In this document: positions 44,999 through 63,112 of the stretch, in pieces | How the letters are laid out: the number at the start of each line of letters is the position of its first letter | Numbering within the stretch: the first letter of the stretch is position 1 | DNA from: an uncultured beta proteobacterium | GTDB taxonomy: Bacteria > Pseudomonadota > Gammaproteobacteria > Burkholderiales > SG8-39 | Direction of reading: 5' to 3' | Length of the DNA stretch: 64,000 bases | NCBI GenBank assembly: GCA_963747775.1 | Contig: CAVVGT010000003.1 | Coordinates: 641,538 to 705,537 of the forward strand | The notes under the pieces: model-generated | What the model was told of the DNA's origin: nothing | Database searches by the model: none | What the model saw: the letters and a program-made list of their open reading frames with translations, nothing else | Made by a program: the position numbers and the translations under genes

Positions 44999-45734
44999 TC
45001 TCGTCGCGATACATCACCTGGTGGCGTTTCTCGCGCACCCACTCGTCGATCTGCCCGGGCGTCATGTAGTTCGCGGCGTTGAACCGGTCCCAAGACATGA
45101 TCTCGGGCAGGGACTTCTTCCAGCGCTTGTATGGCGGCTTCGCCGGCGGTCCGAAGCAGAAGATGTCGACGACGGCGAGGTCGTCGGGAATGCCGAGGAG
45201 CGGCTTCAGCGCATTCTGGGCGTTCTCCTGCCCGATCGCCGTGACCCACCAAACGTTGTACCCAAGCGCGGCGGCCGCCAGATGGGCCGACATGGTCGAA
45301 GCGGCCACCGACTGCAGCAGGATGCGCTCGGCATTTTCCTGGTACTGGCGGTCGAGGGCGGAGCCGTCGTTCAGCACCGGGAACGCACGCGTCCAGCGGA
45401 AGTCGCTCGCGATCACGATGAAGCCCGGCGCGGTCTCCAGCCCGCGATAGTTCGGCGTCGGGAACTTCATGTGCAGCTTCGCGCGGCTCCGCGCCTCGTC
45501 CACGAAATAGTCGGCGATCGCCCTCTTGATGGCCACCTCGGTGATCACGACGTAGTGCCAGGGCTGCGCATTGGCGCCGGACGGCGCGTGCCGCGCGGCC
45601 TCCAGAATGAGCTCGTAATGCTCCAGCGGAACGACGTACGACGGGTCGAACTGGCGCGTCGTCATGCGGTTGCGGACCACGTCCATCAGCGCGTCGTAGC
45701 GCGCGCGCTGGTCGTAACGGGCAGCGATTTCCAT
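44985..45734 (-). CDS. Nitroreductase-family flavoprotein
   Basis: RMTTRQFD, HAPSGANAQPWHY and a typical length of 249 aa. Confidence 0.85.
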   Translation of the reverse strand: MEIAARYDQRARYDALMDVVRNRMTTRQFDPSYVVPLEHYELILEAARHAPSGANAQPWHYVVITEVAIKRAIADYFVDEARSRAKLHMKFPTPNYRGLETAPGFIVIASDFRWTRAFPVLNDGSALDRQYQENAERILLQSVAASTMSAHLAAAALGYNVWWVTAIGQENAQNALKPLLGIPDDLAVVDIFCFGPPAKPPYKRWKKSLPEIMSWDRFNAANYMTPGQIDEWVREKRHQVMYRDESKVD

Positions 45735-45810
45735 TCGGGCCTCCTCGAAGGTTCCGCATCGATGATCCGGGGTCGCGGCCCGGAGTGCAAGCGATGGCTA
45801 AAGGCGTGCC

Positions 45811-45870
45811 CGCTGGTTGTAGGGCCGCTGGTTGTAGGGGCGCTGGTTGTATGGCCGCTGGCCTTCGGCT
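45811..45870. repeat. Tandem repeat, about 3.5 copies of a 15-bp unit CGCTGGTTGTAGGGS
   Basis: Units at 45811-25, 45826-40 and 45841-55, plus a degenerate unit at 45856-70. The array lies in the divergent region between the nitroreductase and the molybdo-hydroxylase FAD subunit. Confidence 0.85.
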
Positions 45871-45907: not shown

Positions 45908-46756
45908 ATGGGAAGCTACCTCCGCCCGAGCGTGCTCGACGACGCGCTGCGCGCCCGCGCGGCCGGGCCGTGCACGGTGCTCGCGGGCGGCACCGACTTC
46001 TATCCTGCACGGGTCGGCCGGACGATCGACGAGGATGTCCTCGACATCACCGCGATCGCCGACCTGCGCGGCGTGCGGGAGGAGTCCGCGCACTTCCGTA
46101 TCGGCGCGCTCACGACCTGGATCGAGCTCGTCGCGGCGCCGCTGCCCGCATGGTTCGATGCGGTGAAGCTCGCCGCCCGAGAAGTCGGCGGCGTCCAGAT
46201 TCAGAACGCGGGGACCGTTGCCGGCAATCTCTGCAACGCTTCGCCGGCGGCTGACGGCGTGCCGCCCCTGCTCGCGCTCGGCGCCAAGGTGGAGTTGCGG
46301 TCCGTGCGCGGCGCGCGGACGCTTCCGCTCGGCGAGTTCGTGCTCGGCAACCGGCTGACCGCGTGCGCGCCCGACGAGCTGATGACCGCGGTGTTGGTCT
46401 CCAAATGGGGCGGGCGCGCACGGTCGACCTTTCTCAAGCTCGGCGCGCGCCGGTACCTCGTGATCTCGATCGCGATGGTCGCGGCGGCGGCCGAGACCGA
46501 TGCGCGCGGGGCGATCGCGCGCTGCGGCGTTGCCGTCGGCGCGTGCTCATCGGCCGCACAGCGCCTGCCGGCGCTGGAGGCCGCACTCGTGGGCCGCACT
46601 CTGGCGCCGGGCATCGGCGCAACGGTGGCACCGGCGCACCTTGCGTCGCTTGCGCCGATCACCGACATCCGCGCGAGCTCGGCGTATCGCGGCGACGCGG
46701 TTGCGACGCTCGTTGCTCGGGCGCTCGAGAGACTGGCGCATGAACAGGCCGCTTGA
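45908..46756 (+). CDS. FAD-binding subunit of a xanthine dehydrogenase-family molybdo-hydroxylase (CoxM-like)
   Basis: VLAGGTDFYP, and AGNLCNASPAADG in the FAD-binding domain. 282 aa from the ATG at 45908. Confidence 0.85.
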   Translation: MGSYLRPSVLDDALRARAAGPCTVLAGGTDFYPARVGRTIDEDVLDITAIADLRGVREESAHFRIGALTTWIELVAAPLPAWFDAVKLAAREVGGVQIQNAGTVAGNLCNASPAADGVPPLLALGAKVELRSVRGARTLPLGEFVLGNRLTACAPDELMTAVLVSKWGGRARSTFLKLGARRYLVISIAMVAAAAETDARGAIARCGVAVGACSSAAQRLPALEAALVGRTLAPGIGATVAPAHLASLAPITDIRASSAYRGDAVATLVARALERLAHEQAA

Positions 46757-49506
46757 TCTATCCACGGTCGCGTTCACGCTGAACGGCGAGCCGCAGCGCG
46801 TCGCCGCGCGGCCGGCCGAGCGCCTGTCCGACGTCCTGCGCGAGGCGCTGGGCCTGACCGGGACGAAGGTCGGCTGCAACGCCGGGGACTGCGGCGCATG
46901 CACGGTGCTCGTCGATGGACGCCAGGTCTGCGCCTGCCTGACCGCGGTCGCGCAGGTGGAAGGGCGGGTGGTGCAAACGGTGGAAGGCCTGGCGCATGGG
47001 GCGAGGCTCGATCCGCTGCAGCGATCGTTTCTCGCGCACGGCGCCGCGCAATGCGGCATCTGCACGCCGGGGATGCTGATGGCGTCGCGCGAGCTGCTTG
47101 GGCGCAATGCGAATCCGAGCGAGAGCGAGGTGTGCGACGCGCTCGGCGGCGTGCTGTGCCGGTGCACCGGCTATCGCAAGATCGTCGATGCGGTGCTCGC
47201 GGCGGGGCGCGGAGAGGCGGCGCTCGCGGAGCCCGCGGTCGGGGCGGCGGTCGGTGCTCGAGCCCCCAAGACCGACGGCGCACCGAAGGTCACCGGGAGG
47301 GAGCGTTACGGCGCCGACCACTGGCCCGACGGCGCGCTCTGGTTGCACGTGATCCGCTCGCCGCACGCCAAGGCGCGCTTCGAGATCGGCGATCTCGCGC
47401 CGCTGTTCGCGCGGCACCCCGGGCTAGTAGACGTCGTGACCGCGCGCGACGTGCCCGTGAACGCTTTCGGGATCTTCCCCGACGTCAAGGACCAGCCGGT
47501 GCTGGCGGACGGCCGAGTCCGCTTCCGCGGCGAGGCGGTGCTGGGCCTGGTCGGCGAGATGGACGCGGTGCTCCGGATCCCGGAGCCGGACATTCCGATC
47601 CGCTGGATGCCCGAGGTCGCGCAGACCGAGGTGGAGGACGCGCTCGCGCACGTCGCCGATCCCCTGCACGCGCGCAATCCCGACAACGTCCTCGTCCGCG
47701 GGCGCGTCGTGAAGGGCGACGTCGAGGCGGCGCTCGCCGCCGCGACGCACGTTGCAGAAGGCGAGTTCACGACCAGCTTCGTCGAGCACGCGTACATCGA
47801 GCCCGAGGCGGGGTTCGCAGAGCGGGTGGGAGAGCGCATCCGGATCTTCGCGTGCACCCAGACCCCGTACATGGACCGCGAGGAGGTGGCGCGCGTCCTC
47901 GGCATCGAGGACGTGCAGGTGCACATCGTGCCGTCGGCGGTGGGCGGGGGGTTCGGCGGCAAGCTCGACATCTCGATCCAGCCGCTCCTTGCGGTCGCCG
48001 CCTGGAAGCTGAAACGTCCGGTGCGCGGCGCCTATACGCGCCCGGAGTCGATGGCGTCGACGACGAAGCGCCATCCGGCACGCATGCGGCGCGCGCTTCG
48101 GGTGCGACGCCGAGGGCCGCCTCGTCGCGGCGGATTTCTCCGGCGACTTCAATACGGGCGCGTACGCGTCCTGGGGGAACACCGTCGCGAACCGGGTGCC
48201 GATCCACGCGTCGGGGCCGTACGCCGTGCCGAACGTGCGGGCGCTGACGCGTGCGGTGTACACCAACGGACCGATCGCCGGGGCATTCCGCGGCTTCGGC
48301 GTGCCGCAGTCGACGATCGTGCACGAGGCGCTGCTCGACGAGCTGGCGGAGCGGGTCGGCCTCGACAAGCTCGAGTTCCGTCATCGCAACGCGATCCGCG
48401 CCGGGCAGGCCACGGCGACGGGACAGGTCCTTAAGGCGAGCGCGGGGTTGGCGCAGTGCCTCGACGCGCTGAGACCGCACTGGCAGGAGGCGGTGCTCGG
48501 TGCAGAAGCGTTCAACCGCCGCGCGGGAGCGGCCGGCCGACTGAAGGGCACTCGACGCGGCGCCGGTCTCGCCTGCATGTGGTACGGGATCGGCAACACG
48601 GTGATCGCCAATCCGTCCACGATGCGCGTCGGCCTTAAGCCGGACGGTCGCGTGATGTTCTACAACGGCGCGGTCGACATCGGGCAGGGCTCGAACACAA
48701 TATTGGTCCAGTTGCTAGCGGATGCGCTCGGCCTGCCGATGGCGGCGATCGACTATGTGATGGGCGACACGGATCTGACAGCCGATGCGGGAAAGACGTC
48801 GGCGTCGCGCCAGGCCTTCGTGTCGGGCAATGCGACGCACCTGGCCGGCACCGAGCTGCGGCGCAGGATGATTGCGCTCGCCGAGGCGCGTGCGAATGCG
48901 ACGCTGCGACTCGAGGACGGGGCGCTGATCGCGAGCGACGCCGACGGCGAGCATCGTATCGACCTCGCCGAGCTGCCGCGTGACGGGCGCGGCGACGTGC
49001 TTTCGGCCGACGGGCACTTCAACCCCCCGACCGTCCCGCTCGACAAGGACGGTCAGGGCGTGCCGTACGCCACCTACGGCTTCGGCGCGCAGCTAGCGGA
49101 GCTGGAAGTCGACCTCGAGCTCGGCACGGTGCAGCTGCTGCGCATCGTCGCCGCGCACGACGTGGGGCGCGCGCTCAACCCGACACAGGTCGAGGGCCAG
49201 ATCCACGGCGGCATCGCACAAGGCATCGGCCTCGCGCTGATGGAGGAGTACCACGCCGGCAAGACCGAAAACCTGCACGACTACCTGATCCCCACGATCG
49301 GCGACGTGCCTCCGCTCGAGGTCATTCTCGTCGAGGATCCCGAGCCGCTGGGGCCGCACGGCGCGAAGGGCGTCGGCGAGCCGGCGCTCATCCCGACCGC
49401 GCCGGCGATCTTCAATGCGATTCACCACGCGACGGGTGTGCGGCTGCGTCATGCGCCGGCCACGCCGGATCGCGTGCGCGCGGCGCTGCTCGCGGCGCAG
49501 GGATGA
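46740..49506 (+). pseudogene. Fused [2Fe-2S] + molybdopterin-binding subunit of the molybdo-hydroxylase, with a single frameshift at ~48090
   Basis: CNAGDCGACTV, CGICTPG and CRCTGY 2Fe-2S motifs, followed by the aldehyde oxidase/XDH a/b-hammerhead and Moco domains. Homology continues in the +1 frame after CGC ATG CGG C GCG CGC TTC (ARFGCDAEGRL...GQGS...GEPA). Confidence 0.85.
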
Positions 49507-49507
49507 A

Positions 49508-50287
49508 ATGACGGCGCGACCGCCCGTCGCATTCGTCACCGGTGCCCGGCGCGGGATCGGTCGCGGCATCGCGTATGCGCTGGCCGATGCCGGGTTCGAT
49601 CTCGTTCTGAACGACGTCGTCGACGACGCGGCAACGGGCGAGACACTTCAGGCGGTGCGCGCAAGAGGGCGGCGTGTGACGTTCCTGCCGGGTTCGATCG
49701 CGGAGCTCGCCGGCCATCCATCGACGGTCGAAAAGGCGTTCGGCGCCTACGGCACGGTCGACTGCCTGGTCAACAACGCGGGCATTCAGGTCAAGGTCCG
49801 GGGCGATGTCCTCGACGTGCAGCCCGAGAGCTTCGATGCGTTGCTCGCGGTCAACCTCCGTGGCACCTTCTTCCTGACCCAGGCGGTGGCGAAGCGGATG
49901 CTCGCGGAGTCGCGGGGGGCGGGCGATCCGCTGCGCTCGATCGTGACGATCTCCTCGGCGAACGCGCGTATCGTCGGGCCGAACCGCGCGGAGTACTGCT
50001 TCGCCAAGACCGGGCTCGCGATGATGAACCAGCTCTTTGCGGTGCGGCTGGCGGATGCCGGCATCATGTGCTTCGAAATCCGGCCGGGCATCATTCGCAC
50101 CGACATGACGGCCCCGGCGCAGGCGCGTTATGACAAGCTGATCGCCGAAGGTTTCACGCCGGTACGGCGCTGGGGCGAGCCCGCCGACGTCGGGCGCACG
50201 GTCGCCGCGCTCGCGAGCGGGGCGCTGCCGTTCAACACCGGCGACGCGTTCCACGTCGACGGCGGGCTGCACATCCAGCACTTCTGA
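49508..50287 (+). CDS. Short-chain dehydrogenase/reductase
   Basis: VTGARRGIGRGIA, NNAG and YCFAKTG. The ATG lies 2 nt after the preceding stop. Confidence 0.85.
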   Translation: MTARPPVAFVTGARRGIGRGIAYALADAGFDLVLNDVVDDAATGETLQAVRARGRRVTFLPGSIAELAGHPSTVEKAFGAYGTVDCLVNNAGIQVKVRGDVLDVQPESFDALLAVNLRGTFFLTQAVAKRMLAESRGAGDPLRSIVTISSANARIVGPNRAEYCFAKTGLAMMNQLFAVRLADAGIMCFEIRPGIIRTDMTAPAQARYDKLIAEGFTPVRRWGEPADVGRTVAALASGALPFNTGDAFHVDGGLHIQHF

Positions 50288-50290
50288 GCC

Positions 50291-51802
50291 ATGACGACGC
50301 ACGCCGACCCGTTGAGCGAATCTCCCGGCGAGGACGCCCTCCGGGCGCAGCCGGGCAAGATCGTCTGCAACGCGTGCCCGGTGCTGTGTCAGATCAGCGC
50401 CGGTCGCGCCGGGGCGTGCGATCGCTACACGAACGTCGGGGGTGCGCTGACGCGCGTCGATCCGCTGCTCTTGATGGCGCGGACGCTGGACGAGCACGGC
50501 GCCGTGGTGCCCTTCGCCGACGGCCAGCCGTGGAACGGAAGCGTGACGGCGGAGGCGCCGCTGTTCGTGACCGGCGTCGGCTCGGGCACGACCTACCCGG
50601 ACTACAAACCGGCACCGTTCATCGTGTCCTCGCAGCAGGCCGGCGTCGACATGGTGACGGTCGTCACCGAGGGGATCTTCAGCTACTGCAGCTTCAAGGT
50701 GAAGATCGACACCGACCGCTATCTCGGCCCGGAGTGCGCGCCGGTGCGCTGCCAGGGCGAGGTGGTCGGTCACGTCACCACAATGGAGTACGGCTCGCAG
50801 ATGCTGTCGCTCGGCGGGGTGCACCACCTCACCGGCGGCAGTAAGAAGGAGGGCCGCGTCACCTGCGAAGTCATGCTCGCGCTCGGCAACCGCCAGCCGG
50901 TGGAGATGCAGATCGAGGGCGGCACGCAACTCGTCGTGCAGGCCGGCCGGGCCCCGGTGATCAACGACGTCGAGGAAAAGCGCATGCGTGTCGGCTGCGG
51001 GTCGGCGACGATCGGCATCTTCGCCCAGCAGTGGCACGGCCACGTCGACGAGGTGGTGGTGGTCGACGATCACATCACCGGCGTGCTCTCCGAGCACCAG
51101 GCCGGTCGCTTCCTCGACATGCGGCCGGGCGGAATCAAGGTGATCGGTCGCAAATCGACCCCGGGTCGCTACTTCCAGGTCGCGAATCCGGGCCTCGGCT
51201 GGGGCGGCACCGACGTCACCGATCCGTTGAAGATCATCAAGTCGATCGACCGTCGCGAGGCGTGGCCCGGCGAGCGCATCCTCATGGTCTCGACGACCGG
51301 CGAGGACTACGCGTACTTCGTGCTGGACGAGGCGCTGCGCATGGTGCCGGCGGAAATCCCCGCGCCGGTGATGAAGGTCGTCGAGCGCATCGGCGAGAAC
51401 TGCGAGCCGGCGCTGTGCACCGTGCTCTTCCTCGGGGGCGCGGGCGGCAGCCTGCGCGCCGGCGTGACCGAGAACCCGATCGCGCTGACCCGGTCGATCA
51501 AGGATCTGCTCACGCGCGTGACCTGCGGCGGCGCCCCGGCGTACGTGTGGCCCGGCGGCGGGATCATGGTGATGGCGGACGTGACGCGCATGCCGGCAAA
51601 CGCCTTCGGCTGGGTGCCGACGCCCGCGATCGTCGCGCCGATCGAATTCACGCTGCGCCGCGCCGATTACGCCGCGCTCGGCGGGCACATGGACCGCGTG
51701 CGCCCCTTCGCCGACATCCTGGAGCACGAGCGACATCGCGTCGTCGGCTGGGATGCGGCGAACCCCTGGCCGCTCGATGGGCCCGACGCGCGCGCGCCTT
51801 GA
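50291..51802 (+). CDS. 6-hydroxynicotinate reductase-like Fe-S protein (503 aa)
   Basis: N-terminal Cys cluster CNACPVLCQISAGRAGAC. Overall length and sequence recall proteobacterial proteins annotated as 6-hydroxynicotinate reductase. This is memory-based and needs an HMM check. Confidence 0.7.
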   Translation: MTTHADPLSESPGEDALRAQPGKIVCNACPVLCQISAGRAGACDRYTNVGGALTRVDPLLLMARTLDEHGAVVPFADGQPWNGSVTAEAPLFVTGVGSGTTYPDYKPAPFIVSSQQAGVDMVTVVTEGIFSYCSFKVKIDTDRYLGPECAPVRCQGEVVGHVTTMEYGSQMLSLGGVHHLTGGSKKEGRVTCEVMLALGNRQPVEMQIEGGTQLVVQAGRAPVINDVEEKRMRVGCGSATIGIFAQQWHGHVDEVVVVDDHITGVLSEHQAGRFLDMRPGGIKVIGRKSTPGRYFQVANPGLGWGGTDVTDPLKIIKSIDRREAWPGERILMVSTTGEDYAYFVLDEALRMVPAEIPAPVMKVVERIGENCEPALCTVLFLGGAGGSLRAGVTENPIALTRSIKDLLTRVTCGGAPAYVWPGGGIMVMADVTRMPANAFGWVPTPAIVAPIEFTLRRADYAALGGHMDRVRPFADILEHERHRVVGWDAANPWPLDGPDARAP

Positions 51803-52646
51803 CGCACGACGCTGGCACTTCCAGCACGGGCCGATCGACCTCGTGTTGGAGGCGTTCGGCGCCGAGGCGACCATCGACGCCGCATATGCGCGTGCGTGGC
51901 GGCGCTTTGCCACGGTGCTCGACGAACTGGTGTCCGAGCTGCCGGCGTTGCGCGGCGAAGTCGCGCGCGCCGTCGGCCTGAGGGGCACCGTCGCGCGCCG
52001 GATGGTCGCGGCCTGCCTGCCGTACCGCGACGTCTTCATCACGCCGATGGCGGCCGTGGCCGGGGCGGTGGCCGAGGAGATCCTGGATGCGATGATCGGC
52101 GTCGGCGAACCGACCAAGGCATACGTGAACAACGGCGGCGACATCGCGCTGCACCTCGGTGTCGGCGAGTCGACCCGGATCGGATTGGTCGCGGACGTCG
52201 ACCGGACGACGCGGCACGGTCACCGCGTCGCCGTCGACGGGACCTTCGAGGTGACGCATGCATTGCCGGTGCGCGGTGTCGCGACGAGCGGCTGGCGCGG
52301 GCGCAGCTGGAGCCTCGGCATCGCGGACAGCGTAACCGTGCTGGCGGCGACCGCCGCGGCGGCCGACGCGGCGGCGACGATGGTCGCGAATGCCGTGAAC
52401 GTCGATCACCCGGCGATCCGGCGTCGACCCGCAGGGGAGGTGGACGACAACACCGACCTCGGCCGGATGCCGGTGACCGTGGAAGTCGGCCCGCTGCCGG
52501 AGGACGCGGTCGCGGCGGCGCTCGCGAACGGCGCGCAGCGCGCCGAAGCGCTGCTCGCCCGCGGCCTCGTCTGGGGCGCAGTGATCGTGCTGCAATCGCG
52601 CGTGCGCGTCGTCGGCGGGGTCGCGGCGGCGGCGCGACTGCACTGA
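51777..52646 (+). CDS. UPF0280-family (ApbE-like fold) protein
   Basis: WHFQHGPIDLVL...ITPMAAVAGAVAEEI...VNNGGDIAL...RGVATSGWRGRSWSLGIADSVTV. The start (51777 or 51753) overlaps the end of the previous gene. Confidence 0.7.
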   Translation: MGPTRARLDARRWHFQHGPIDLVLEAFGAEATIDAAYARAWRRFATVLDELVSELPALRGEVARAVGLRGTVARRMVAACLPYRDVFITPMAAVAGAVAEEILDAMIGVGEPTKAYVNNGGDIALHLGVGESTRIGLVADVDRTTRHGHRVAVDGTFEVTHALPVRGVATSGWRGRSWSLGIADSVTVLAATAAAADAAATMVANAVNVDHPAIRRRPAGEVDDNTDLGRMPVTVEVGPLPEDAVAAALANGAQRAEALLARGLVWGAVIVLQSRVRVVGGVAAAARLH

Positions 52647-52716
52647 CGACGGACACCGGCGCGCACACTATGTATAGTGCGGCCCTCGGGCGGCGGCGAA
52701 AGCGGAGGAGGAGAAC

Positions 52717-53925
52717 ATGATGGTGCGCAAGCAATGGCTGATCGGTGCGGGGGTCCTGGCGGTCGCGGCGAGCGTGACCGGGCCGGTCGCGGCACAGGGG
52801 TCGATCAAGCTCGGCGAGATGAACAGCTACAAGACGTTCCCGGCGTTCCTGGAGCCCTACAAGAAGGGCTGGGAGCTTGCGGTGGACGAGGTCAACGCGG
52901 CCGGCGGCGTGTTCGGCCGCAAGCTCGAGGTCGTCTCGCGCGACGACAACGGCAACCCGGGCGAGGCGGTGCGGATCGCCGAGGAACTGCTCACGCGCGA
53001 GAACGTGCACTTCATCATGGGCACGTTCGCCTCGAACGTCGGACTGGCGGTGTCCGACTTCGCGAAGCAGAAGAAAGTGCTCTTCATCGCGGCCGAGCCG
53101 CTGACCGACAAGATCGTCTGGGACAGCGGCAACAAATACACCTTCCGCCTGCGTCCCTCGACGTACATGCAGACGGCGATGCTGGTGCCCGATGCCGCGA
53201 AGCTGAAGAAGAAGCGCTGGGCGATCGTCTACCCGAACTACGAGTACGGCCAGTCGGCGACGCGCGCGTTCAAGGATCTGCTCAAGAAGGCCCAGCCCGA
53301 CGTGGAGTTCGTCACCGAGCAGGCGGTGCCGCTCGGCAAGATCGACGCCGGCGCGGTGGTGCAGGCGATCGCCGACGCGAAGCCCGACGCGATCTTCTCT
53401 TCGCTGTTCGGTGCGGACCTGACCCGCTTCGTGCGCGAGGGCAACACGCGCGGTCTGTTCAAGGGGCGCGAGGTCTTCAACCTGCTCGCCGGCGAGCCCG
53501 AGTACCTCGATCCGCTCAAGGACGAGACGCCGAACGGCTGGTACGTGACCGGCTACCCGTGGAACGCGATCAACACGTCGGAGCACAAGAAGTTCCTCGC
53601 GGCGTACCAGAAGAAGTGGAACGACTACCCGCGGCTCGGTTCGATCGTCGGTTACTCCACCGTGATGACCGCGGTCGCCGCGATGAAGAAGTCCGGCAGC
53701 CTCGACAACGAGAAGCTCGTCGCCGCGATGAAGGGGCTGCAGGTGGACACGCCGTTCGGGAAGATCCTCTACCGACCGATCGACAACCAGTCGACCATGG
53801 GCGCGTACGTCGGTAGGATCGGCCTGAAGGACGGCAAGGGCGTCATGACCTCGTGGACGTACGCCGACGGCGCGAAATTCCTGCCCTCGGACGCCGAGGT
53901 GAAGAAGCTGCGTCCGGCGGACTGA
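52717..53925 (+). CDS. ABC transporter periplasmic substrate-binding protein (Leu/Ile/Val-binding protein family)
   Basis: Signal peptide MMVRKQWLIGAGVLAVAASVTGPVAA and a type-I PBP fold sequence (IKLGEMNSY..., GTFASNVGLAV). GGAGGAGGAG RBS. Confidence 0.9.
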   Translation: MMVRKQWLIGAGVLAVAASVTGPVAAQGSIKLGEMNSYKTFPAFLEPYKKGWELAVDEVNAAGGVFGRKLEVVSRDDNGNPGEAVRIAEELLTRENVHFIMGTFASNVGLAVSDFAKQKKVLFIAAEPLTDKIVWDSGNKYTFRLRPSTYMQTAMLVPDAAKLKKKRWAIVYPNYEYGQSATRAFKDLLKKAQPDVEFVTEQAVPLGKIDAGAVVQAIADAKPDAIFSSLFGADLTRFVREGNTRGLFKGREVFNLLAGEPEYLDPLKDETPNGWYVTGYPWNAINTSEHKKFLAAYQKKWNDYPRLGSIVGYSTVMTAVAAMKKSGSLDNEKLVAAMKGLQVDTPFGKILYRPIDNQSTMGAYVGRIGLKDGKGVMTSWTYADGAKFLPSDAEVKKLRPAD

Positions 53926-53947
53926 TCGCGCCGCGCCCGACTACAGA

Positions 53948-53972
53948 GGGACAGGTCCGCCTGTCCCTTTTT
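53948..53972 (+). terminator. Intra-operon Rho-independent terminator/attenuator after the binding-protein gene
   Basis: Stem GGGACAGG/CCTGTCCC, loop TCCG, followed by T5. Confidence 0.7.
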
Positions 53973-53974
53973 CG

Positions 53975-54113
53975 TTAACGAAGCTCTCACCAGGGTCTTC
54001 CGACGAATGCCGGAGCGAGTTCGCAGCGACGCAGATCGCTGCCTCATGTCGTCCACGCTCGTCCAGCTGCGCTGCCTCGCGATACCCCGTGGCCGAGATT
54101 CAGGCCTTTCCCG
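53975..54113 (-). repeat. Dispersed intergenic repeat, copy B (inverted relative to copy A)
   Basis: The reverse complement of 54045-54100 reads GGCCACGGGGTATCGCGAGGCAGCGCAGCTGGACGAGCGTGGAC, nearly identical to 39165-39210. Confidence 0.7.
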
Positions 54114-55997
54114 ATGCTCTCGTCCATCTTCATCCAATTCCTGAACGGGCTGGCGAGCGCGTCCACCCTGTTCCTGATCGCGGTCGGGCTGTCGCTGATC
54201 TTCGGCGTCACCCGCATCGTCAACTTCGCGCACGGCTCGCTGTACATGCTCGGGTTGTACGTCGCCTACACCCTGATCGAGAAGCTCGGCGTGACACCGC
54301 TCGGTTTCTGGGGCGGCATCGCCGGCGCGGCGCTCGCAGTAGCGGCGGTCGGTGCCGCGATCGAGATCCTCATCCTCCGGCGCATCTACCACGCGCCAGA
54401 ACTCTTCCAGCTCCTCGCAACCTTCGCGCTGACGCTCGTCATCAAGGACGCGGTGCTGTGGGGCTGGGGCGCGGAGGACCTGCTCGGGCCGCGCGCGCCG
54501 GGGCTGCGCGGGTCGGTGGAGTTCTTCGGCAAGCCGTTCCCGGAGTACGATCTCGCGCTGATCGCGATCGGTCCGCTCGTTCTGGGCGCACTGTGGCTGC
54601 TGCTCAACCGGACGCGCTGGGGTACGCTCGTGCGCGCCGCGACGCAGGACCGCGAGATGGTGGGCGCCCTCGGGGTCAATCAGAAATGGCTCTTCACCGG
54701 CGTCTTCGCGCTCGGCGCGTTCCTCGCGGGGCTCGGCGGGGCGCTCCAGATCCCGCGCGAGCCGGCGCAGCTCTTCCTCGACCTGACCGCGATCTCCGAC
54801 GCGTTCGTTGTGGTCGTGGTCGGCGGCCTGGGCAGCATTCCTGGCGCGTTCCTCGCCGCGCTGCTGATCGGCGTCATCAAAGCCTTCTGCGTCGGCATCG
54901 GCACGGTCGAAGCGTTCGGCACGACGTTCTCCTTCTCCAAGCTCACGCTCGTGGTCGAGTTCCTCGTGATGGCGATCGTGCTGATCCTGCGGCCGCAGGG
55001 CCTCCTCGGTCGGCCGCAGGGCGTCCAGCGCGCCGCCGCGGAGTTCGTCGAGCAGCCGCTGCGGCCGGCCGGACGGGCGCTCCGGACCGGCGCGATCGTG
55101 CTGGTCGCGGCGCTTGCCGCGCTCCCGCTCGCCACCACCGGCTACACGCTCGTCCTGCTGATCGACATCCTGGTGTTCGCGCTGTTCGCGACGAGCCTGC
55201 ACTTCATCATGGGGCCCGGCGGAATGGTGTCGTTCGGCCACGCGGCGTACCTCGGCCTCGGCGCGTACGGTGGCGGGCTCCTGCTGAAGGCCGCGGGCTG
55301 GCCCATGGAAGCGGCGCTCGTCGCGGCGCCGGTGGTCGCCGGGATCGGGGCCCTGGTCTTCGGGTGGTTCTGCGTGCGCCTCTCGGGGGTGTACCTCGCG
55401 ATGCTGACGCTCGCCTTCGCCCAGATCGCGTGGTCGATTGTGTTCCAGTGGGACGGGTTTACCGGCGGCTCGAACGGCATCGTCGGCGTGTGGCCTGCGC
55501 CGTGGCTCGCGCCAAAGCCCGCGTACTACCTGCTCGCCCTCGTGCTGTGCGGCGGGGCGATTTGGCTGCTGCGGCGGATGCTGTTCGCGCCGTTCGGCTA
55601 CGCGCTGCGCGCCGGACGCGATTCGCCCTTGCGTGCCGACGCGATCGGCATCGACGTCCGGCGCCTGCAGTGGGCCGCGTTCGTCGTCGCGGGGGCGTTC
55701 GCCGGCCTGGCGGGCGGCCTCTATGCCTTCTCCAAGGGAAGCATCTCGCCCGACTCGACCATGGCGGTGTCGCGCTCGATCGACGCGCTGGTGATGGTGC
55801 TCCTTGGCGGCGTGCAGACGCTCAGCGGCCCGGTGGTCGGCGCAGCGCTCTTCACCTGGCTGCAAGACACGATCGCCCGCGGCACGGACTACTGGCGCGC
55901 GGTACTGGGCCTCACGATCCTCGTGCTGGTGCTCGTGTTCCCGCAGGGGATCGTGGGCGCCCTGCGCGGCTGGTTCGACAAGAAGGAACCGGAGTGA
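54114..55997 (+). CDS. Fused LivH/LivM-type ABC permease (627 aa)
   Basis: Two branched-chain-amino-acid-type permease halves with many TM segments. TGATG overlap with the next gene. Confidence 0.9.
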   Translation: MLSSIFIQFLNGLASASTLFLIAVGLSLIFGVTRIVNFAHGSLYMLGLYVAYTLIEKLGVTPLGFWGGIAGAALAVAAVGAAIEILILRRIYHAPELFQLLATFALTLVIKDAVLWGWGAEDLLGPRAPGLRGSVEFFGKPFPEYDLALIAIGPLVLGALWLLLNRTRWGTLVRAATQDREMVGALGVNQKWLFTGVFALGAFLAGLGGALQIPREPAQLFLDLTAISDAFVVVVVGGLGSIPGAFLAALLIGVIKAFCVGIGTVEAFGTTFSFSKLTLVVEFLVMAIVLILRPQGLLGRPQGVQRAAAEFVEQPLRPAGRALRTGAIVLVAALAALPLATTGYTLVLLIDILVFALFATSLHFIMGPGGMVSFGHAAYLGLGAYGGGLLLKAAGWPMEAALVAAPVVAGIGALVFGWFCVRLSGVYLAMLTLAFAQIAWSIVFQWDGFTGGSNGIVGVWPAPWLAPKPAYYLLALVLCGGAIWLLRRMLFAPFGYALRAGRDSPLRADAIGIDVRRLQWAAFVVAGAFAGLAGGLYAFSKGSISPDSTMAVSRSIDALVMVLLGGVQTLSGPVVGAALFTWLQDTIARGTDYWRAVLGLTILVLVLVFPQGIVGALRGWFDKKEPE

Positions 55998-56746
55998 TGG
56001 CCGTCCTCGCGGTCGAGCACCTGGAAAAATCGTTCGGCGGAGTCCAAGCGGTCCGCGGCGTGAGCTTCGAGGTCGCCGCCGGGGAGCTGCTCGCCCTGAT
56101 CGGTCCGAACGGCGCGGGCAAGACCACCTGCTTCAACATGCTGAACGGCCAGCTTCCGGCCGATACGGGGAGCGTCCGCTTCGAATCGCGCGAGATCCTC
56201 GGCATGCAGCCGCGCGAGGTCTGGCGCCTCGGCGTCGGGCGAACTTTTCAGATTACCGCGACCTTCGCGTCGATGACGGTGCGCGAGAACGTTCAGATGG
56301 CGCTGCTCGCCCACCACCGCCGCTTGCGCGAGTGGTGGCGGCCGGCCGCGCGGCTCCATCGGGACGAGGCCGATCGCCTGCTCGCGCGGGTCGGGATGAA
56401 CGAGCAGGCGGAGCGCGCGTGCTCGGTGCTCGCATACGGCGATCTCAAGCGGGTGGAGCTGGCGGTGGCGCTGGCGAACGAGCCGCGGCTGCTGCTGATG
56501 GACGAGCCGACCGCGGGCATGGCGCCCAAGGAGCGCATCGCGCTCATGGCCCTCACCGCCGAGATCGTCCGCGAGCGCCGCATCGCGGTGCTCTTCACCG
56601 AGCACGACATGGACGTCGTGTTCGCGCACGCCGACCGCATCATCGTGCTCAACCGCGGGCGGCTCATCGCCACGGGCAAGCCGGCTACGGTCAGGGCAAG
56701 CGCGGAGGTGCAGCAGGTGTATCTCGGATCGCGGGGGGTGCTCTGA
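55997..56746 (+). CDS. ABC transporter ATP-binding protein (LivG-like)
   Basis: Walker A GPNGAGKTT, signature-like YGDLKRVEL, Walker B LLLMDEP. Confidence 0.9.
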   Translation: MAVLAVEHLEKSFGGVQAVRGVSFEVAAGELLALIGPNGAGKTTCFNMLNGQLPADTGSVRFESREILGMQPREVWRLGVGRTFQITATFASMTVRENVQMALLAHHRRLREWWRPAARLHRDEADRLLARVGMNEQAERACSVLAYGDLKRVELAVALANEPRLLLMDEPTAGMAPKERIALMALTAEIVRERRIAVLFTEHDMDVVFAHADRIIVLNRGRLIATGKPATVRASAEVQQVYLGSRGVL

Positions 56747-57447
56747 TGCTGTCGGTCCGGAAGCTCGAGACCTACTACGGGCGGGCGCACATCCTGAGCG
56801 ACCTGTCGCTCGAGGTCGGGAAGGGTGAAGTGGTCGTGCTGCTCGGACGCAACGGCGCCGGCAAGTCGACGACGCTGAAGAGCATCATGGGTCTGGTACG
56901 TCCGGCCCGCGGGGAGGTGAGCTTTGCAGACCGGCGCATCGACCGCCTCGAGCCCTACGAGATCGCGGAGCTCGGCCTCGGCTACGTTCCGGAGGATCGG
57001 CGCATCTTCACCGAGCTGACGGTGATGGAGAACCTCGAAGTCGGCCGGCAGGTGGCGCGCGCCGGTGCGCCGACCTGGACGCCGGAGCGGCTGTTCAAGC
57101 TGTTCCCGAACCTCGCCGAGATGACCGACCGCCCCGGCGGCCGCACCTCCGGGGGCGAGCAGCAGATGCTGACCATCGCGCGCACGCTGATGGGCAACCC
57201 GTCGTGCATCCTGCTCGACGAGCCGTCCGAGGGTCTCGCGCCGTTGATCGTCGACCAGATGGCCGCCGCGATCCGCGCGCTGAAGGCCGAGGGACTGTCG
57301 GTGCTGCTGTCGGAGCAGAACCTGCGCTTCGCGACCGAGGTCTCGGACCGCGCGTATATCATCGAGAAGGGCCGCATCCGTTTCTCCGGCACGATGGCGG
57401 AGCTGGCGGCGAACGAGGACGTGCGGGCGCAATATTTGGCGGTATGA
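56746..57447 (+). CDS. ABC transporter ATP-binding protein (LivF-like)
   Basis: Walker A GRNGAGKST, signature SGGEQQML, Walker B ILLDEP. Confidence 0.9.
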   Translation: MLSVRKLETYYGRAHILSDLSLEVGKGEVVVLLGRNGAGKSTTLKSIMGLVRPARGEVSFADRRIDRLEPYEIAELGLGYVPEDRRIFTELTVMENLEVGRQVARAGAPTWTPERLFKLFPNLAEMTDRPGGRTSGGEQQMLTIARTLMGNPSCILLDEPSEGLAPLIVDQMAAAIRALKAEGLSVLLSEQNLRFATEVSDRAYIIEKGRIRFSGTMAELAANEDVRAQYLAV

Positions 57448-59474
57448 CCCGGATCGCAGGCATCGACGTCGGCGGCACCTTCACCGATCTCGTCCTCGTC
57501 GACGAGGCGACGGGCGAGGTGCGCCTCGCGAAGGTTCCGACGACGCCCGACAACCAGGCCTTTGGCGTGCTGGCGGCGCTGGAGCAGACGGGTGTCGGGC
57601 TCACGAAGCTCGGCGCGATCGTGCACGGCACGACGACGACCACCAATGCGATGCTCGAGCGCAAGATCGCACGCGTGGGCCTGATCACGACGCGCGGGTT
57701 CCGCGACATCCTCGAGCTCGGCCGGCGCACGCGGCCACACCCCTACGGCCTGATCGGGGCCTTCCACCCCCTGATCGAGCGCGAGCTGCGCCTCGAGGTC
57801 GACGAGCGCATGGACTCGGACGGCGCGGTGGTGCGTCCGCTCGACGAGGCAGCCGCGGATCGGGCCGCGCGGCGGCTGCTCGAGCTCGGCGCCGAGTCGC
57901 TCGTGATCCACTTTCTGCACAGCTACATCAACCCGGCGCACGAGAACCGCGCCGCCGAGATCGCCCGGCGTCTGTGGCCGAACGGCCACGTGACGGTCGG
58001 TCACGCGATCCTGTCCGAGTATCGCGAGTACGAGCGCGGCGTCACTGCAACCGTCAACGCGGCGATTCAACCGGTGCTCCATCGCTATCTCGAGCGTCTC
58101 CAGGGCGAGCTCGCGAAGCGCGGCTTCGGCGCCGAGCTGCTGGTCATGCAAGGGAACGGCGGCACCGTCGCCGCGAGCATCGCCGCCGAGGCGGCGGTGA
58201 ACACCGTGATGTCGGGCCCCGCGTCGGGCGTCATCGCCGCGGCGTACACCGCGACCCGCTCGGGGATTCCGAACGTCGTCACCTACGACATGGGCGGGAC
58301 CTCGACCGACGTCGCGCTCATCCAGGACGGCCTGCCGGAGGTCTCGACCGAACTCGAGCTCGAGTACGCGCTGCCGATCCACGTGCCGATGGTGGACGTG
58401 CACACGATCGGGGCGGGCGGCGGCTCGATCGCGCGCATCAACGAGGCCGGCATGCTCCAGGTCGGGCCGGAGAGCGCCGGCGCCGCGCCGGGACCGATCT
58501 GTTACGGCCGCGGCGGCGAGCGCGTGACGATCACCGACGCGAACCTGGCACTGGGCCGCCTCAACCCGAAGGGCCTGCTCGCAGTCGAACGCCCCGTTCC
58601 GATGGAGCGACTGCGCGCCATGATCGCGAGCCAGGTCGGCAAGCCGCTCGGCCTGAGCGCCGACCAGGCGGCCGCGGCGGTGCTGCGCATCGCGAACGAC
58701 CGGATGGCAGGCGCGATCCGCATGGTGAGCCTCGCGCGCGGCCACGATCCGCGCGATTTCGCGCTGTTCGCGTTCGGCGGTGCCGGGCCGCTGCATGCGG
58801 TTGCGCTCGCGCGCGAGCTCGCGATTCCGAAGGTCCTGATCCCGGCGCGCCCGGGTCTCACCAACGCGCTCGGCTGCGCGGTCGCGGACGTGCGGCACGA
58901 CTTCGTGCGCACCGTGAACCGCCTGCTGCCGGAGGTCGCCGACGATCTGGTGGGGCGCGTCCTGGACGAACAGGTCGCGGAAGGCCGGGCGACCATCGCG
59001 CGCGAGCGCGTGAGCGTCGAGCGCATCGACTTCGTGCACCGCGCCGACATGCAGTTCCAGGGGCAGAGCCATATCCTCACCGTGCCGCTGCCGGGCCGCG
59101 ACGTCCCGCGCGACGCGTTGCATCGGCTGTTCGAAGCGGCCTACTGGCAGCGATTCCAGGTCGAGCTCAAGGAGATCCGCCCGGTGCTGGTCAGCCTCCA
59201 TACCGCCGCGATCGGGCGGCGGCGCCCGGTCTCGCTCGAGGCCGTCGCGCAGGGCGAGCCGCGCGCGACGTTGCGGGAGGCGGAGGTCGAGCGGCGCAGC
59301 GTGTGGTTCGACGCCGGCTGGACCGAAACGCCGGTGTATCGGCGCGAGTGGCTGCCTCCTAGCGCGACGTTCGACGGTCCTGCGGTGATCGAGCAGCTCG
59401 ATTGCACGACCCTGATCGAGCCGGGTTGCCGGGTGGAGCGCGACCGGCTCGGCAATCTCATCATCACCGTCTGA
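57444..59474 (+). CDS. hyuA: Hydantoinase/oxoprolinase family, A (beta) subunit
   Basis: N-terminal GIDVGGTFTDLVL and a second ASKHA-type motif YDMGGTSTDV. ATGA overlap with the upstream ATPase gene. Confidence 0.9.
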   Translation: MTRIAGIDVGGTFTDLVLVDEATGEVRLAKVPTTPDNQAFGVLAALEQTGVGLTKLGAIVHGTTTTTNAMLERKIARVGLITTRGFRDILELGRRTRPHPYGLIGAFHPLIERELRLEVDERMDSDGAVVRPLDEAAADRAARRLLELGAESLVIHFLHSYINPAHENRAAEIARRLWPNGHVTVGHAILSEYREYERGVTATVNAAIQPVLHRYLERLQGELAKRGFGAELLVMQGNGGTVAASIAAEAAVNTVMSGPASGVIAAAYTATRSGIPNVVTYDMGGTSTDVALIQDGLPEVSTELELEYALPIHVPMVDVHTIGAGGGSIARINEAGMLQVGPESAGAAPGPICYGRGGERVTITDANLALGRLNPKGLLAVERPVPMERLRAMIASQVGKPLGLSADQAAAAVLRIANDRMAGAIRMVSLARGHDPRDFALFAFGGAGPLHAVALARELAIPKVLIPARPGLTNALGCAVADVRHDFVRTVNRLLPEVADDLVGRVLDEQVAEGRATIARERVSVERIDFVHRADMQFQGQSHILTVPLPGRDVPRDALHRLFEAAYWQRFQVELKEIRPVLVSLHTAAIGRRRPVSLEAVAQGEPRATLREAEVERRSVWFDAGWTETPVYRREWLPPSATFDGPAVIEQLDCTTLIEPGCRVERDRLGNLIITV

Positions 59475-59480
59475 CGCACC

Positions 59481-61223
59481 GTGCCCGCAATCGATCCCGT
59501 CACGCTCGCCGTCATCCAGAACGGACTGCAGCAGGTCTGCAACGAGATGGACCTCGCGTTCTGCCGCGCGGCGTTCAGCCCGGTGATCTCCGAGACGATG
59601 GACCGCTCCGACGGGATCTACCACCGCGACTCGGGCGAGCTGATATCGCAGGGGGAGCTCGGACTGCCGGTGTTCGTCGGGACGATGCAGTTCTCGACGC
59701 AGGCCGTGATCGACCGGGTGCGCGCGGACCGCGTGAAGCTCGACGCGGGCGACGTGTTCATCGTGAACGACCCGTATCTGGGCGGCACGCACCTGATGGA
59801 CGTGAAGTTCGTCAAGCCGTTCTTCTACCGCGGCGCGCCGTGGTGCTGGCTCGCAAACACCGGCCACTGGCCCGATGTCGGCGGCATCGTGCCGGGCGGC
59901 TTCTCGGCCAACGCCACCGAGGTGGAGCAGGAGGGACTGCGCCTGCCGCCGGTGAAGCTCTACAAGCGCGGTGAGCTCGACCAGGAAATCCTCTCGATCA
60001 TCCTGTCGAACATCCGCATTGCCGACCAGCGCATCGGCGACATCAAGGCGCAGGCCGCGGCGCTCGCAATCGGCGAGCGCCGGCTCACGGCGCTGCTCGA
60101 TCGCTACGGGGCGGACACGGTCGACGCCGCGATCGGCGAGCTCAAGGCGCGGGCGGCGCAACAGATGCGCGCGAAGATCGGGGCGATTCCGGACGGCGAG
60201 TACGAAGGCGAGGCGTTCGTCGACTCTGACGGGGTCGTCAACGAGCCCTTGCGCATCGCGATGAAGGTCGCAAAGCGCGGCGAGACGCTCACCTTCGACA
60301 TGTCCGGTTCCTCGCCGCCGTGCCGCGGCCCCATGAACAGCGTGCTCGCGACCACCAAGTCGTCGATTTACCTCGCGATCAAGCACGTGTTCCCGGACGT
60401 ACCCATCAACTCGGGAACCTTCGAGCCGCTCGAGATCGTCGATCCGGAGGGGACGTTCCTCTACGCGAAGTACCCCCGTCCGGTGTCGGGCTGCGCGGCC
60501 GAGGTGAGCCAGCGCATCGCCGAGGCGGTGTTCGGTGCGCTCGTCAAGGCGATCCCCGACCAGTTGTTTGCGGCGCCGGCGGGGACCTCCGGCAACCTGT
60601 CGGTCGGCGGATACGATCCGGTGCGCCAGCGCTCGTACGTGATGTACGTGATCTCGGGCGGCGGCTACGGCGGGTCGGCGCACGGCGACGGGATCTCGAA
60701 CGGCTGCTCGACCATCGGCATCTCCAAGACCACCCCCATCGAGGTGATGGAGCAGTACTACCCGGTGCTGTTCGAGGAGTATTCGCTGCACGAGGGCTCC
60801 GGCGGGCCCGGCGAGCAGCGCGGCGGGTTCGGCGTCAACTACAAGTTCCGGCTCCGGCGCGGCGAAGCCCGCGCCTCGATGGTGATGGACCACGGCCGGT
60901 ACGGCCCGCAGGGCGCGCGCGGCGGGCGCGACGGCGGGGTCAACCGGGTGCGGGTCCTCCACGACACGAGCGCGTACGAGCCGCCCCACCTGTCGAAAGA
61001 CCAGGACATCCACCTCGACGCGGGCGATGTCATCGAGGTGTCGACGCCCGGCGGCGGGGGGTTCGGCGATCCGTTCCGTCGCGCGCTGGACCGCGTCGCA
61101 CGGGACGTGGCGCGGGGCTACTACACCCGCGCGCAAGCGGCGAACTGGTTCGGCGTCGCGTTGTCAGAGGACGGGAGCGTCGACGCCGCCGGGACCGCGC
61201 GGCTGCGCGCCGGTGCCGTATGA
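59481..61223 (+). CDS. hyuB: Hydantoinase B/oxoprolinase family subunit
   Basis: 580 aa with VNDPYLGGTHLMD and typical HyuB conservation throughout. Confidence 0.9.
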   Translation: MPAIDPVTLAVIQNGLQQVCNEMDLAFCRAAFSPVISETMDRSDGIYHRDSGELISQGELGLPVFVGTMQFSTQAVIDRVRADRVKLDAGDVFIVNDPYLGGTHLMDVKFVKPFFYRGAPWCWLANTGHWPDVGGIVPGGFSANATEVEQEGLRLPPVKLYKRGELDQEILSIILSNIRIADQRIGDIKAQAAALAIGERRLTALLDRYGADTVDAAIGELKARAAQQMRAKIGAIPDGEYEGEAFVDSDGVVNEPLRIAMKVAKRGETLTFDMSGSSPPCRGPMNSVLATTKSSIYLAIKHVFPDVPINSGTFEPLEIVDPEGTFLYAKYPRPVSGCAAEVSQRIAEAVFGALVKAIPDQLFAAPAGTSGNLSVGGYDPVRQRSYVMYVISGGGYGGSAHGDGISNGCSTIGISKTTPIEVMEQYYPVLFEEYSLHEGSGGPGEQRGGFGVNYKFRLRRGEARASMVMDHGRYGPQGARGGRDGGVNRVRVLHDTSAYEPPHLSKDQDIHLDAGDVIEVSTPGGGGFGDPFRRALDRVARDVARGYYTRAQAANWFGVALSEDGSVDAAGTARLRAGAV

Positions 61224-63105: not shown

Positions 63106-63112
63106 GTCGACC

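Follow-up and report, generated by a model that had tools for sequence, protein, structure and literature searches.

A putative cluster for nicotinate catabolism with HyuAB in place of enamidase in an uncultured member of the Burkholderiales

In the reductive route of nicotinate degradation, nicotinate is converted via 6-hydroxynicotinate to 1,4,5,6-tetrahydro-6-oxonicotinate (THON), and the ring is then opened hydrolytically by a bifunctional enamidase (PMC9304392). The gene cluster of Eubacterium barkeri encodes NdhFSLM, the 6-hydroxynicotinate reductase Hnr and enamidase. Nicotinate clusters of this type are also known from Proteobacteria, including a strain that grows on nicotinate via 6-hydroxynicotinate (PMC3511419). 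In the present study a stretch of 64,000 nucleotides from an uncultured beta proteobacterium of the order Burkholderiales was analyzed (contig CAVVGT010000003.1, positions 641,538 to 705,537), in the following called the window. It contains an array of eleven genes on the plus strand (g1 to g11, positions 45908-61223), and it is considered fairly probable that this array serves the catabolism of nicotinate (6-hydroxynicotinate) by a THON-type pathway, in which the ring would be opened not by enamidase, but by the two-subunit enzyme HyuAB.

The comparison with the E. barkeri cluster revealed a nicotinate hydroxylase of the xanthine dehydrogenase (XDH) family, a reductase of the Hnr family that would lead to THON, and a predicted hydrolytic opening of the C-N bond with release of ammonia as common features (PMC9304392). 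In contrast to E. barkeri, the window encodes HyuAB in place of enamidase, the 2Fe-2S and molybdenum cofactor (Moco) parts of the hydroxylase form one fused chain and are not split as in the E. barkeri L and M subunits, the cluster is devoid of B12-dependent downstream genes, and the host is an aerobic proteobacterium with a dedicated ferredoxin and reductase and an ATP-binding cassette (ABC) importer. The clusters of Azorhizobium caulinodans, Bradyrhizobium and SG-6C (PMC3511419) and enamidase-type clusters of Burkholderiales (e.g. CP099606) share with the window Hnr together with UPF0280, an orthologous Liv-type importer, a molybdenum hydroxylase and neighboring genes for ferredoxin and reductase, but they encode enamidase and usually two AA_synth proteins (PF06684), whereas the window has neither and instead has HyuAB and a short-chain dehydrogenase/reductase (SDR). 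The nic cluster of Pseudomonas putida (NicAB, NicC, NicX; maleamate pathway) also starts with a molybdenum-dependent hydroxylation of nicotinate, and some loci related to the window seem to use NicAB-like hydroxylases (2Fe-2S and Moco-cytochrome c proteins). However, P. putida proceeds oxidatively after 6-hydroxynicotinate (2,5-dihydroxypyridine, cleavage by a dioxygenase), whereas in the window the ring would be reduced and then hydrolyzed. Caprolactamase CapAB (6YRA), the valerolactamase OplBA of P. putida, 5-oxoprolinase and N-methylhydantoinase have in common with the HyuAB of the window the Hydantoinase_A and Hydantoinase_B subunits, the ATP motifs and the metal site, and they provide a precedent for five- to seven-membered lactams, while the substrate proposed here, an unsaturated carboxylated delta-lactam (enamide), does not belong to the substrates known for the HyuAB family.

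The initial annotation, made from the sequence of the window, had proposed an undescribed kind of cluster and had left its substrate unnamed. This proposal is not supported, because the order of hydroxylation, reduction and hydrolytic opening is that of the characterized pathway of E. barkeri and A. caulinodans (PMC9304392), and because orthologous loci carry genes for the nicotinamidase PncA (206 bits, cut-off 174) and the nicotinate phosphoribosyltransferase PncB (584 bits, cut-off 379). The presence of these two genes makes nicotinate or 6-hydroxynicotinate the most likely substrate. The pathway family is thus already recognized. The apparent exchange of enamidase for HyuAB is widespread among the loci compared, and no description of it was found in the literature searched, including searches for HyuAB or hydantoinase together with (6-hydroxy)nicotinate.

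To compare the loci, genes in the window and in all other loci were called with a position-specific log-odds coding-potential caller, and the proteins were clustered into families. A genome scan yielded 80 loci with Hnr at 66-95% identity, mostly from metagenome-assembled genomes of Burkholderiales, and together with the window 81 loci were available; 10 kb on either side were considered for each locus, or one replicon per plasmid. Six enamidase orthologs, which match the PDB entry 2VUN at E=3e-108, were used as queries for tblastn, and no match was obtained in the 64-kb window at E<=1e-3, in agreement with the initial annotation, which had noticed that enamidase is absent. AA_synth, PncA, PncB and ferredoxin-NADP reductase (FNR) were likewise not found in the window by tblastn, and a NicAB-like hydroxylase is also missing from it. 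Enamidase alone was present in 28 of the 81 loci and HyuAB alone in 19 (the window and 18 others), both were never found together, and 34 loci, many of them truncated, had neither. When the analysis was confined to the 40 loci in which Hnr is flanked by 9 kb or more on either side, enamidase was found in 19, HyuAB in 15 and both in none. The pattern was the same for 26 complete Hnr-bearing plasmids or chromids, which encode either enamidase (16 replicons, with the ortholog near Hnr) or HyuAB (ten replicons, where a HyuB ortholog with 62-70% identity lies not more than about 10 kb from Hnr), and in no case both or neither.

In the Hnr tree the loci with HyuAB fall into three or more separate clades, which are interleaved with clades of the enamidase type, and in seven loci the enamidase gene lies directly 3′ of the LivF gene, i.e. 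in the slot that is occupied by HyuAB in the window. The complementary distribution, the separate clades and the shared slot thus lend good support to the idea of the initial annotation that HyuAB could take over the opening of the ring. The gene order of the window recurs in 18 other genome loci, and in rearranged form it is present in cultured Alphaproteobacteria. The linkage of HyuAB to Hnr, for which a co-occurrence check had been suggested, was thus found in both Alpha- and Betaproteobacteria. In Sagittula stellata E-37, where the cluster comprises the plasmid genes ABFK29_RS21845-21910, one strand encodes MarR, the ABC importer, a Rieske protein, two AA_synth proteins, UPF0280, Hnr and FNR, and the other strand encodes the FAD and Moco subunits, HyuA and HyuB. 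Neorhizobium sp. NCHU2750 has nicB, fpr, hnr and UPF0280, then a pair of AA_synth genes, hyuA and hyuB (genes NCHU2750_46320-46370), and in Methylobacterium aquaticum, of which strain MA-22A is a cultured representative, the genes for the importer, HyuA, HyuB, Hnr, UPF0280 and AA_synth are on a single strand. Rhizobium lusitanum is another cultured species of the HyuAB type.

The Hydantoinase_A and Hydantoinase_B proteins are encoded side by side (g10 and g11), as had been predicted, and among the solved structures they are most closely related to N-methylhydantoinase and caprolactamase. The best PDB matches of g10 were 7hk5 (435 bits) and 6yra_A (387 bits), and g11 matched 6yra_B at E=3e-83. 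The suggested comparison with caprolactamase verified the common family, but the cut-offs of the equivalog pair NF050156/NF050157, 1000 bits each, were missed: g10 reached about half of the value for the alpha subunit (499 bits) and g11 about a third of that for the beta subunit (333 bits). The scores are so far below the cut-offs that the window must be taken to encode another enzyme of this family, and it is the equivalog of no named HyuAB enzyme in NCBIfam. The three ASKHA ATP-binding motifs of HyuA are intact in g10 (D8VGGTFTD, D282MGGT and G346AAPGP) and are kept by 16 of 16 full-length HyuA orthologs. The metal tetrad is present in g11 (D41/H104/D107/H129); the Asp-His-Asp-His metal site was shown by mutagenesis to be essential in caprolactamase (PMC8453981). 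Six-membered lactams are hydrolyzed by members of the HyuAB family (PMC6838509, PMC11033972). In the plasmid set the HyuB identity is at least 62% inside the Hnr-linked group and drops to 44% or less for the next group, and therefore the HyuAB proteins of the Hnr loci form a distinct subfamily.

The first step would be catalyzed by the molybdenum hydroxylase, for which orthologs of the FAD subunit g1 were found in 33 loci. Together, g1 and g2 contain the full set of XDH-family domains according to Pfam. The fused protein g2 matched the S, L and M chains of the nicotinate dehydrogenase of E. barkeri (3hrd) with 132, 244 and 224 bits, and among all solved structures these chains gave the highest number of bits per aligned residue. 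No curated equivalog cut-off of NCBIfam was reached by the hydroxylase or by the binding protein of the importer. All domains of the fused 2Fe-2S/Moco gene that had been postulated are thus present, but they are distributed over two reading frames and not encoded by one open reading frame, due to a 1-nt insertion (see below).

The protein g4 had been regarded as Hnr-like, and it indeed belongs to the family for which NCBI and JGI use the name 6-hydroxynicotinate reductase. This family is very large (at least 8000 homologs, the top ones of which bear this name), and g4 is 60-68% identical to the products of annotated hnr genes on plasmids. Eight cysteines are invariant (positions 26, 29, 33, 43, 133, 192, 236 and 371). 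No match to g4 was obtained in Pfam, NCBIfam or the PDB; its AlphaFold model was poor (predicted local distance difference test score, pLDDT, 64; predicted template modeling score 0.54), and a Foldseek search against the PDB with this model gave no match at E<=0.001. The adjacent g5 is a UPF0280 protein, as had been stated before. Its AlphaFold2 model (pLDDT 87) matched DVU1097 (E=3e-11) and then about 38 chains of ApbE, Ftp and FmnB proteins; JGI uses the name "ApbE superfamily" for the UPF0280 family, a few members of which match PF02424. A UPF0280 gene adjoining Hnr was called in 59 of the 81 loci, and by tblastn it was detected wherever the downstream sequence was sufficient. Hnr and UPF0280 are the invariant core of the cluster. 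The ApbE-like fold of the model and the invariant neighborhood, beside the covalent flavin that the Hnr of E. barkeri reportedly carries, suggest that UPF0280 flavinylates Hnr. Nothing relevant to UPF0280 was found in the literature searched.

The electrons for the reduction of the ring could be provided by two proteins encoded upstream on the opposite strand, which the initial annotation had overlooked. One is a ferredoxin of the FdxA type, which is found beside the cluster in 38 of the 81 loci and is the likely electron donor to Hnr. The other, w34, is a fusion protein with two halves that match both subunits of NfnI; its best PDB matches were 5vj7, 5jca_L, 5jca_S and 4ylf_A, and in NCBIfam it matched PRK12778 as well as PRK06567 (688 bits, under the cut-off). 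A w34-type gene adjoins FdxA in 19 loci, while in others a ferredoxin-NADP reductase of the Fpr type is found instead. Thus, w34 is a candidate for the NAD(P)H:ferredoxin reductase that would supply Hnr, and as judged from the gene neighborhoods the system appears to reach upstream to the divergently transcribed genes for FdxA and the Nfn-like protein. A nitroreductase-family gene between FdxA and the array was considered as a further part of the system, but its membership is uncertain; this family occurs in only 4 loci, i.e. the window and its closest relatives L001, L002 and L004.

Taken together, the following pathway is proposed. Nicotinate or 6-hydroxynicotinate would be taken up by the Liv-type ABC importer, and the FAD/2Fe-2S/Moco hydroxylase would convert nicotinate to 6-hydroxynicotinate. 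Hnr, probably flavinylated by the adjoining ApbE-fold UPF0280 protein and probably supplied with electrons by FdxA, which itself would be reduced by the Nfn-like fusion protein, would turn 6-hydroxynicotinate into THON. The cyclic enamide THON would then be opened by HyuAB at the expense of ATP, with HyuA activating the lactam and HyuB hydrolyzing it at the metal site, in analogy to caprolactamase. The enamine product would lose ammonia spontaneously and yield 2-formylglutarate. Because such a ring-opened product would hydrolyze by itself, an aminotransferase is not expected, and in fact no class-III aminotransferase was found in the 83 loci examined for it. The gene content, the homologies, the conserved synteny and the complementary occurrence of enamidase and HyuAB were observed directly, while the substrate, the reaction of HyuAB, the roles of UPF0280 and ferredoxin and the function of the frameshifted hydroxylase gene are all inferred. 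Generalized to the family, the distinct HyuAB subfamily would be an ATP-dependent THON hydrolase, which has repeatedly displaced enamidase in Alpha- and Betaproteobacteria and makes the opening of the ring energy-driven and irreversible, while Hnr would depend on UPF0280 as a flavin transferase and, in aerobes, on a ferredoxin that receives its electrons from an Nfn-like protein or FNR. For this general proposal the chances of being right and of being wrong are regarded as equal.

Several points speak against the assignment of the locus to a THON pathway with HyuAB. A Fisher test of the complementarity of enamidase and HyuAB in the genome loci gave p = 1e-6, but the test ignores phylogeny, and 6 of the 40 loci with full flanks have neither of the two. 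The survey was local (10 kb on either side or one replicon), and thus an enamidase could lie elsewhere in genomes of the HyuAB type. One or two copies of AA_synth are encoded 3′ of UPF0280 in most Hnr clusters, both of the enamidase and of the HyuAB type (e.g. L066 12480-13142; L081 14464-15728), but they are missing in the window and its clade. HyuAB orthologs with 59-63% identity are also found without Hnr, i.e. in S. medicae and in Rhizobium sp. Q54. The frame of g2 is broken by an extra C at position 48090 (ATGCGG[C]GCGCGC), with the frames changing within 48066-48091. Finally, the 42% identity to the E. barkeri enzyme that was published in 2012 applies to a Bradyrhizobiaceae homolog of Hnr and not to g4; the cluster of this homolog is shared by A. 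caulinodans and further Proteobacteria (PMC3511419).

The broken frame of g2, which had escaped the initial annotation, could mean that the cluster is decaying in this organism, and that the hydroxylase is inactivated and at most 6-hydroxynicotinate is usable, or even that the entire pathway is dead. The insertion was found only in the window, and the extra C is missing from 11 of 11 aligned related loci; in addition, the coding score is low for g1 and for the first part of g2, and the dnaE2/imuB region of the window likewise carries multiple frameshifts. However, none of the other ten genes is interrupted, and they share 91-97% identity with those of L001, the closest relative (95% identity), the insertion is located in a GC-repeat tract, and L001 has 1-nt indels of its own in other genes, a pattern that is typical of long-read assembly errors. 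An alignment of the window with L001 revealed single-base indels on both sides in several genes: L001 has a frameshift in hyuB (around 19055-21000, two extra bases opposite window positions 60268-60270) and 1-nt indels in the genes for the Nfn-like protein and the nitroreductase. The indel pattern in both sequences fits long-read assembly error, and a decay of the cluster is regarded as rather unlikely.

A second alternative would be that HyuAB is an unrelated passenger, e.g. a 5-oxoprolinase or an enzyme of hydantoin utilization, and that an enamidase or a different hydrolase, with its gene at another site of the genome, opens the ring. HyuAB genes are indeed abundant and promiscuously distributed, orthologs occur without Hnr, and only the local context was examined. 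In contrast, HyuA is translationally coupled to the ATPase of the importer by an ATGA overlap, the linkage of HyuAB and Hnr is kept across two proteobacterial classes, the 81 loci and the 26 plasmids include no case of HyuAB together with enamidase, no Hnr plasmid lacks both, and HyuAB is not the equivalog of any named HyuAB enzyme. A passenger is thus held to be distinctly improbable. The orthologs without Hnr nevertheless imply that the HyuAB subfamily is not exclusive to the nicotinate pathway, and it may accept more than one lactam.

The SDR g3 offers a third alternative, in which it would reduce the C=C bond of THON to 6-oxopiperidine-3-carboxylate, and HyuAB would convert this stable, saturated delta-lactam into 2-(aminomethyl)glutarate. 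The lactams that HyuAB enzymes are known to hydrolyze are saturated, namely 5-oxoproline, valerolactam and caprolactam (PMC8453981), the best-scoring model of g3 was adh_short_C2, an SDR model of the enoyl-reductase type, and g3-type SDRs were found only in loci with HyuAB or with neither enzyme, and no enamidase locus has one between Moco and Hnr. The gene is located between Moco and Hnr in L001, L004, L005, L006, L008, L016, L018-L022, L028, L037 and L045, but it is absent from the HyuAB-type loci L002, L007, L009, L010 and L012 and from the clusters of Sagittula, Neorhizobium and Methylobacterium, and 2-(aminomethyl)glutarate would require a transaminase, which is missing from every locus. 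A reduction of THON prior to the opening of the ring is therefore very doubtful. An obligatory module of SDR and HyuAB, which had also been considered, was rejected, as several HyuAB-type loci are devoid of the SDR. That another N-heterocyclic carboxylate (e.g. picolinate, isonicotinate or pyrazine-2-carboxylate) is degraded by an analogous sequence of hydroxylation, reduction and opening is most improbable, since, although the window has no gene for nicotinamidase or PncB, the hydroxylase and the binding protein are under all curated equivalog cut-offs and the sequence does not reveal the substrate specificity, the core proteins are 53-97% identical to orthologs in clusters with PncA, PncB, NicAB-like hydroxylases and true enamidase, and they are orthologous to those of the strain that grows on nicotinate via 6-hydroxynicotinate (PMC3511419).

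The preferred reading, a nicotinate pathway in which HyuAB opens THON, includes uptake by the importer g6 to g9, which is orthologous in most of the compared loci (the binding protein g6 in 63 of them), and which has been termed a putative nicotinate ABC transporter (PMC3511419). The binding protein reached 91 bits with the LivK/UrtA models (cut-offs 477-495), far below the equivalog level for a specificity for branched-chain amino acids or urea. A complete LivKHMGF importer had been claimed, and all components of such a HAAT-type system were verified (one binding protein, two permease domains, two ATPases), but LivH and LivM are present as one fused protein.

The eleven genes were recovered at the positions given before, with the open reading frame list and the coding-potential caller, in a window that has a G+C content of about 70%. 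The previous domain assignments, including the SDR (NF009386, 365 bits, cut-off 250) and UPF0280 (NF003322, 377 bits, cut-off 290), were borne out by Pfam and NCBIfam, with corrections for the frame of g2 and the fusion of LivH and LivM. Tight packing of the genes applies to most of the junctions: g1 and g2 overlap by 17 nt, g4 and g5 overlap, g2/g3, g3/g4 and g10/g11 are separated by 1, 3 and 6 nt, respectively, g7/g8 and g8/g9 have TGATG junctions with one base in common, and g9 and g10 share ATGA. It does not hold for two real gaps, namely 70 nt 5′ of the binding-protein gene g6 and 188 nt 3′ of it. The two gaps contain a promoter-like site and a hairpin, respectively (Table 1), and the array is therefore likely to be expressed as more than one transcript. 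The TATAGT/TATATT element of the promoter-like site was also found in L001, L002, L007 and L010. A terminator scan reported no site and missed the hairpin 3′ of g6, which was confirmed by folding.

Table 1. Positions of the genes and sequence elements in the window
Feature	Position	Strand	Evidence and remarks
w34, 1061-aa fusion of NfnB-like (GltD-type FAD/4Fe-4S) and NfnA-like (PyrK-type) parts	40976..44161	-	Pfam Pyr_redox_2 and Fer4_20
FdxA-type 7Fe ferredoxin	44491..44814	-	NCBIfam FdxA_Protbact, 163 bits, cut-off 135; Pfam Fer4 and DUF3470
Nitroreductase-family protein, membership in the system uncertain	44985..45734	-	Pfam Nitroreductase, 90 bits
15-nt tandem repeat CCGCTGGTTGTAGGG, 3.5 copies	45810..45861		Divergent promoter region; TRF score 90; conserved in L001
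g1, FAD-binding subunit, putative nicotinate dehydrogenase	45908..46756	+	Pfam FAD_binding_5 and CO_deh_flav_C
g2, fused 2Fe-2S and molybdopterin subunit, 921 aa once repaired	46740..49506	+	Pfam Fer2, Fer2_2, Ald_Xan_dh_C, MoCoBD_1/2
g3, SDR oxidoreductase, PRK12745 type	49508..50287	+	NCBIfam NF009386
g4, 6-hydroxynicotinate reductase (Hnr) family protein, 503 aa	50291..51802	+	N-terminal CxxCxxxC...C; names of homologs
g5, UPF0280, ApbE-like (flavin transferase) fold, putative Hnr maturation factor	51777..52646	+	NCBIfam NF003322
Promoter-like site CGGACA-17-TATAGT overlapping palindrome CACTATGTATAGTG	52650..52678	+	Just 5′ of the binding-protein gene
g6, periplasmic binding protein, putative nicotinate/6-hydroxynicotinate binder	52717..53925	+	Pfam Peripla_BP_6, 246 bits
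GC-rich hairpin of 11 bp with a TTTTT tail 3′ of g6; attenuator or terminator	53945..53970	+	Folding, centroid -18.3 kcal/mol
g7, fused LivH-LivM-type permease, 627 aa	54114..55997	+	Two BPD_transp_2 stretches; UrtB-like N-half, UrtC/LivM-like C-half
g8, LivG/UrtD-type ATPase	55997..56746	+	Pfam, NCBIfam
g9, LivF/UrtE-type ATPase	56746..57447	+	Pfam, NCBIfam
g10, HyuA, ATP-binding subunit, proposed to activate THON	57444..59474	+	Pfam Hydant_A_N/Hydantoinase_A/Hydant_A_C (307 and 186 bits)
g11, HyuB, metal-dependent hydrolytic subunit	59481..61223	+	Pfam Hydantoinase_B, 552 bits

Some additional features of the window and of the related loci were observed. A segment of 135 bp (53979-54113) between the hairpin after g6 and the permease gene is absent in L001. 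A second intergenic tandem repeat with a 16-nt unit and 3.6 copies is located at 44937-44993, with one copy fewer in L001; the two repeats flank the nitroreductase gene, and both may be binding sites of a regulator. Rfam and tRNA scans of the 64-kb window gave no matches. An imuA/imuB/dnaE2-type cassette for an error-prone polymerase is encoded on the minus strand at 31656-36900. Its main dnaE2 open reading frame (889 aa) is intact, while the N-terminal approximately 150 residues of dnaE2 and imuB are scattered over at least three reading frames, implying several frameshifts, and these could represent either pseudogenes or indel errors of the assembly. The downstream region from 61382 to 64000 encodes an unrelated ABC-2 exporter-like set, consisting of an ATPase, an ABC-2 permease and, truncated where the window ends, an ABC_transp_aux/DUF7088 protein.

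Variations were also found in the related loci. A gene for the alpha subunit of a Rieske-type ring-hydroxylating oxygenase is inserted between AA_synth and the binding-protein gene in L016, L018-L020, L022, L025, L026 and L028, and an insertion of this kind was also observed in L082 (7104-8174). In some loci it is accompanied by a gene for a 337-aa protein without a Pfam match (family f33), and several of the loci with the Rieske gene have neither enamidase nor HyuAB within 10 kb. These insertions are hints at further variants of the pathway. Two plasmids, pSMED01 of S. medicae WSM419 (L084) and pMl3 of ml29 (L087; 7929-20351), encode HyuA-HyuB orthologs without Hnr or UPF0280. In S. medicae the neighboring genes encode AA_synth, MarR, a hydrolase of the isochorismatase family, a pair of nucleoside hydrolases and an ABC importer of the BMP type for nucleosides, and the gene content is such that the locus may be a cluster for the catabolism of pyridine or pyrimidine nucleosides. 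The HyuAB ortholog of Rhizobium sp. Q54 adjoins genes for a TRAP transporter and an aminotransferase.

If the proposed function of HyuAB is correct, the family of ATP-dependent lactamases would gain a reaction on an unsaturated carboxylated delta-lactam, which would be relevant for the biocatalysis of lactams and nylon. It would also account for many of the "N-methylhydantoinase" annotations in soil and marine Proteobacteria. Testable roles would be assigned to two widespread proteins of unknown function, i.e. the flavinylation of Hnr to UPF0280 and the supply of ferredoxin electrons to the Nfn-like fusion protein, and cultured and sequenced strains of the HyuAB type exist, for example Sagittula stellata E-37. 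The cluster would then represent a clean case of repeated non-orthologous displacement in a catabolic pathway of vitamin B3.

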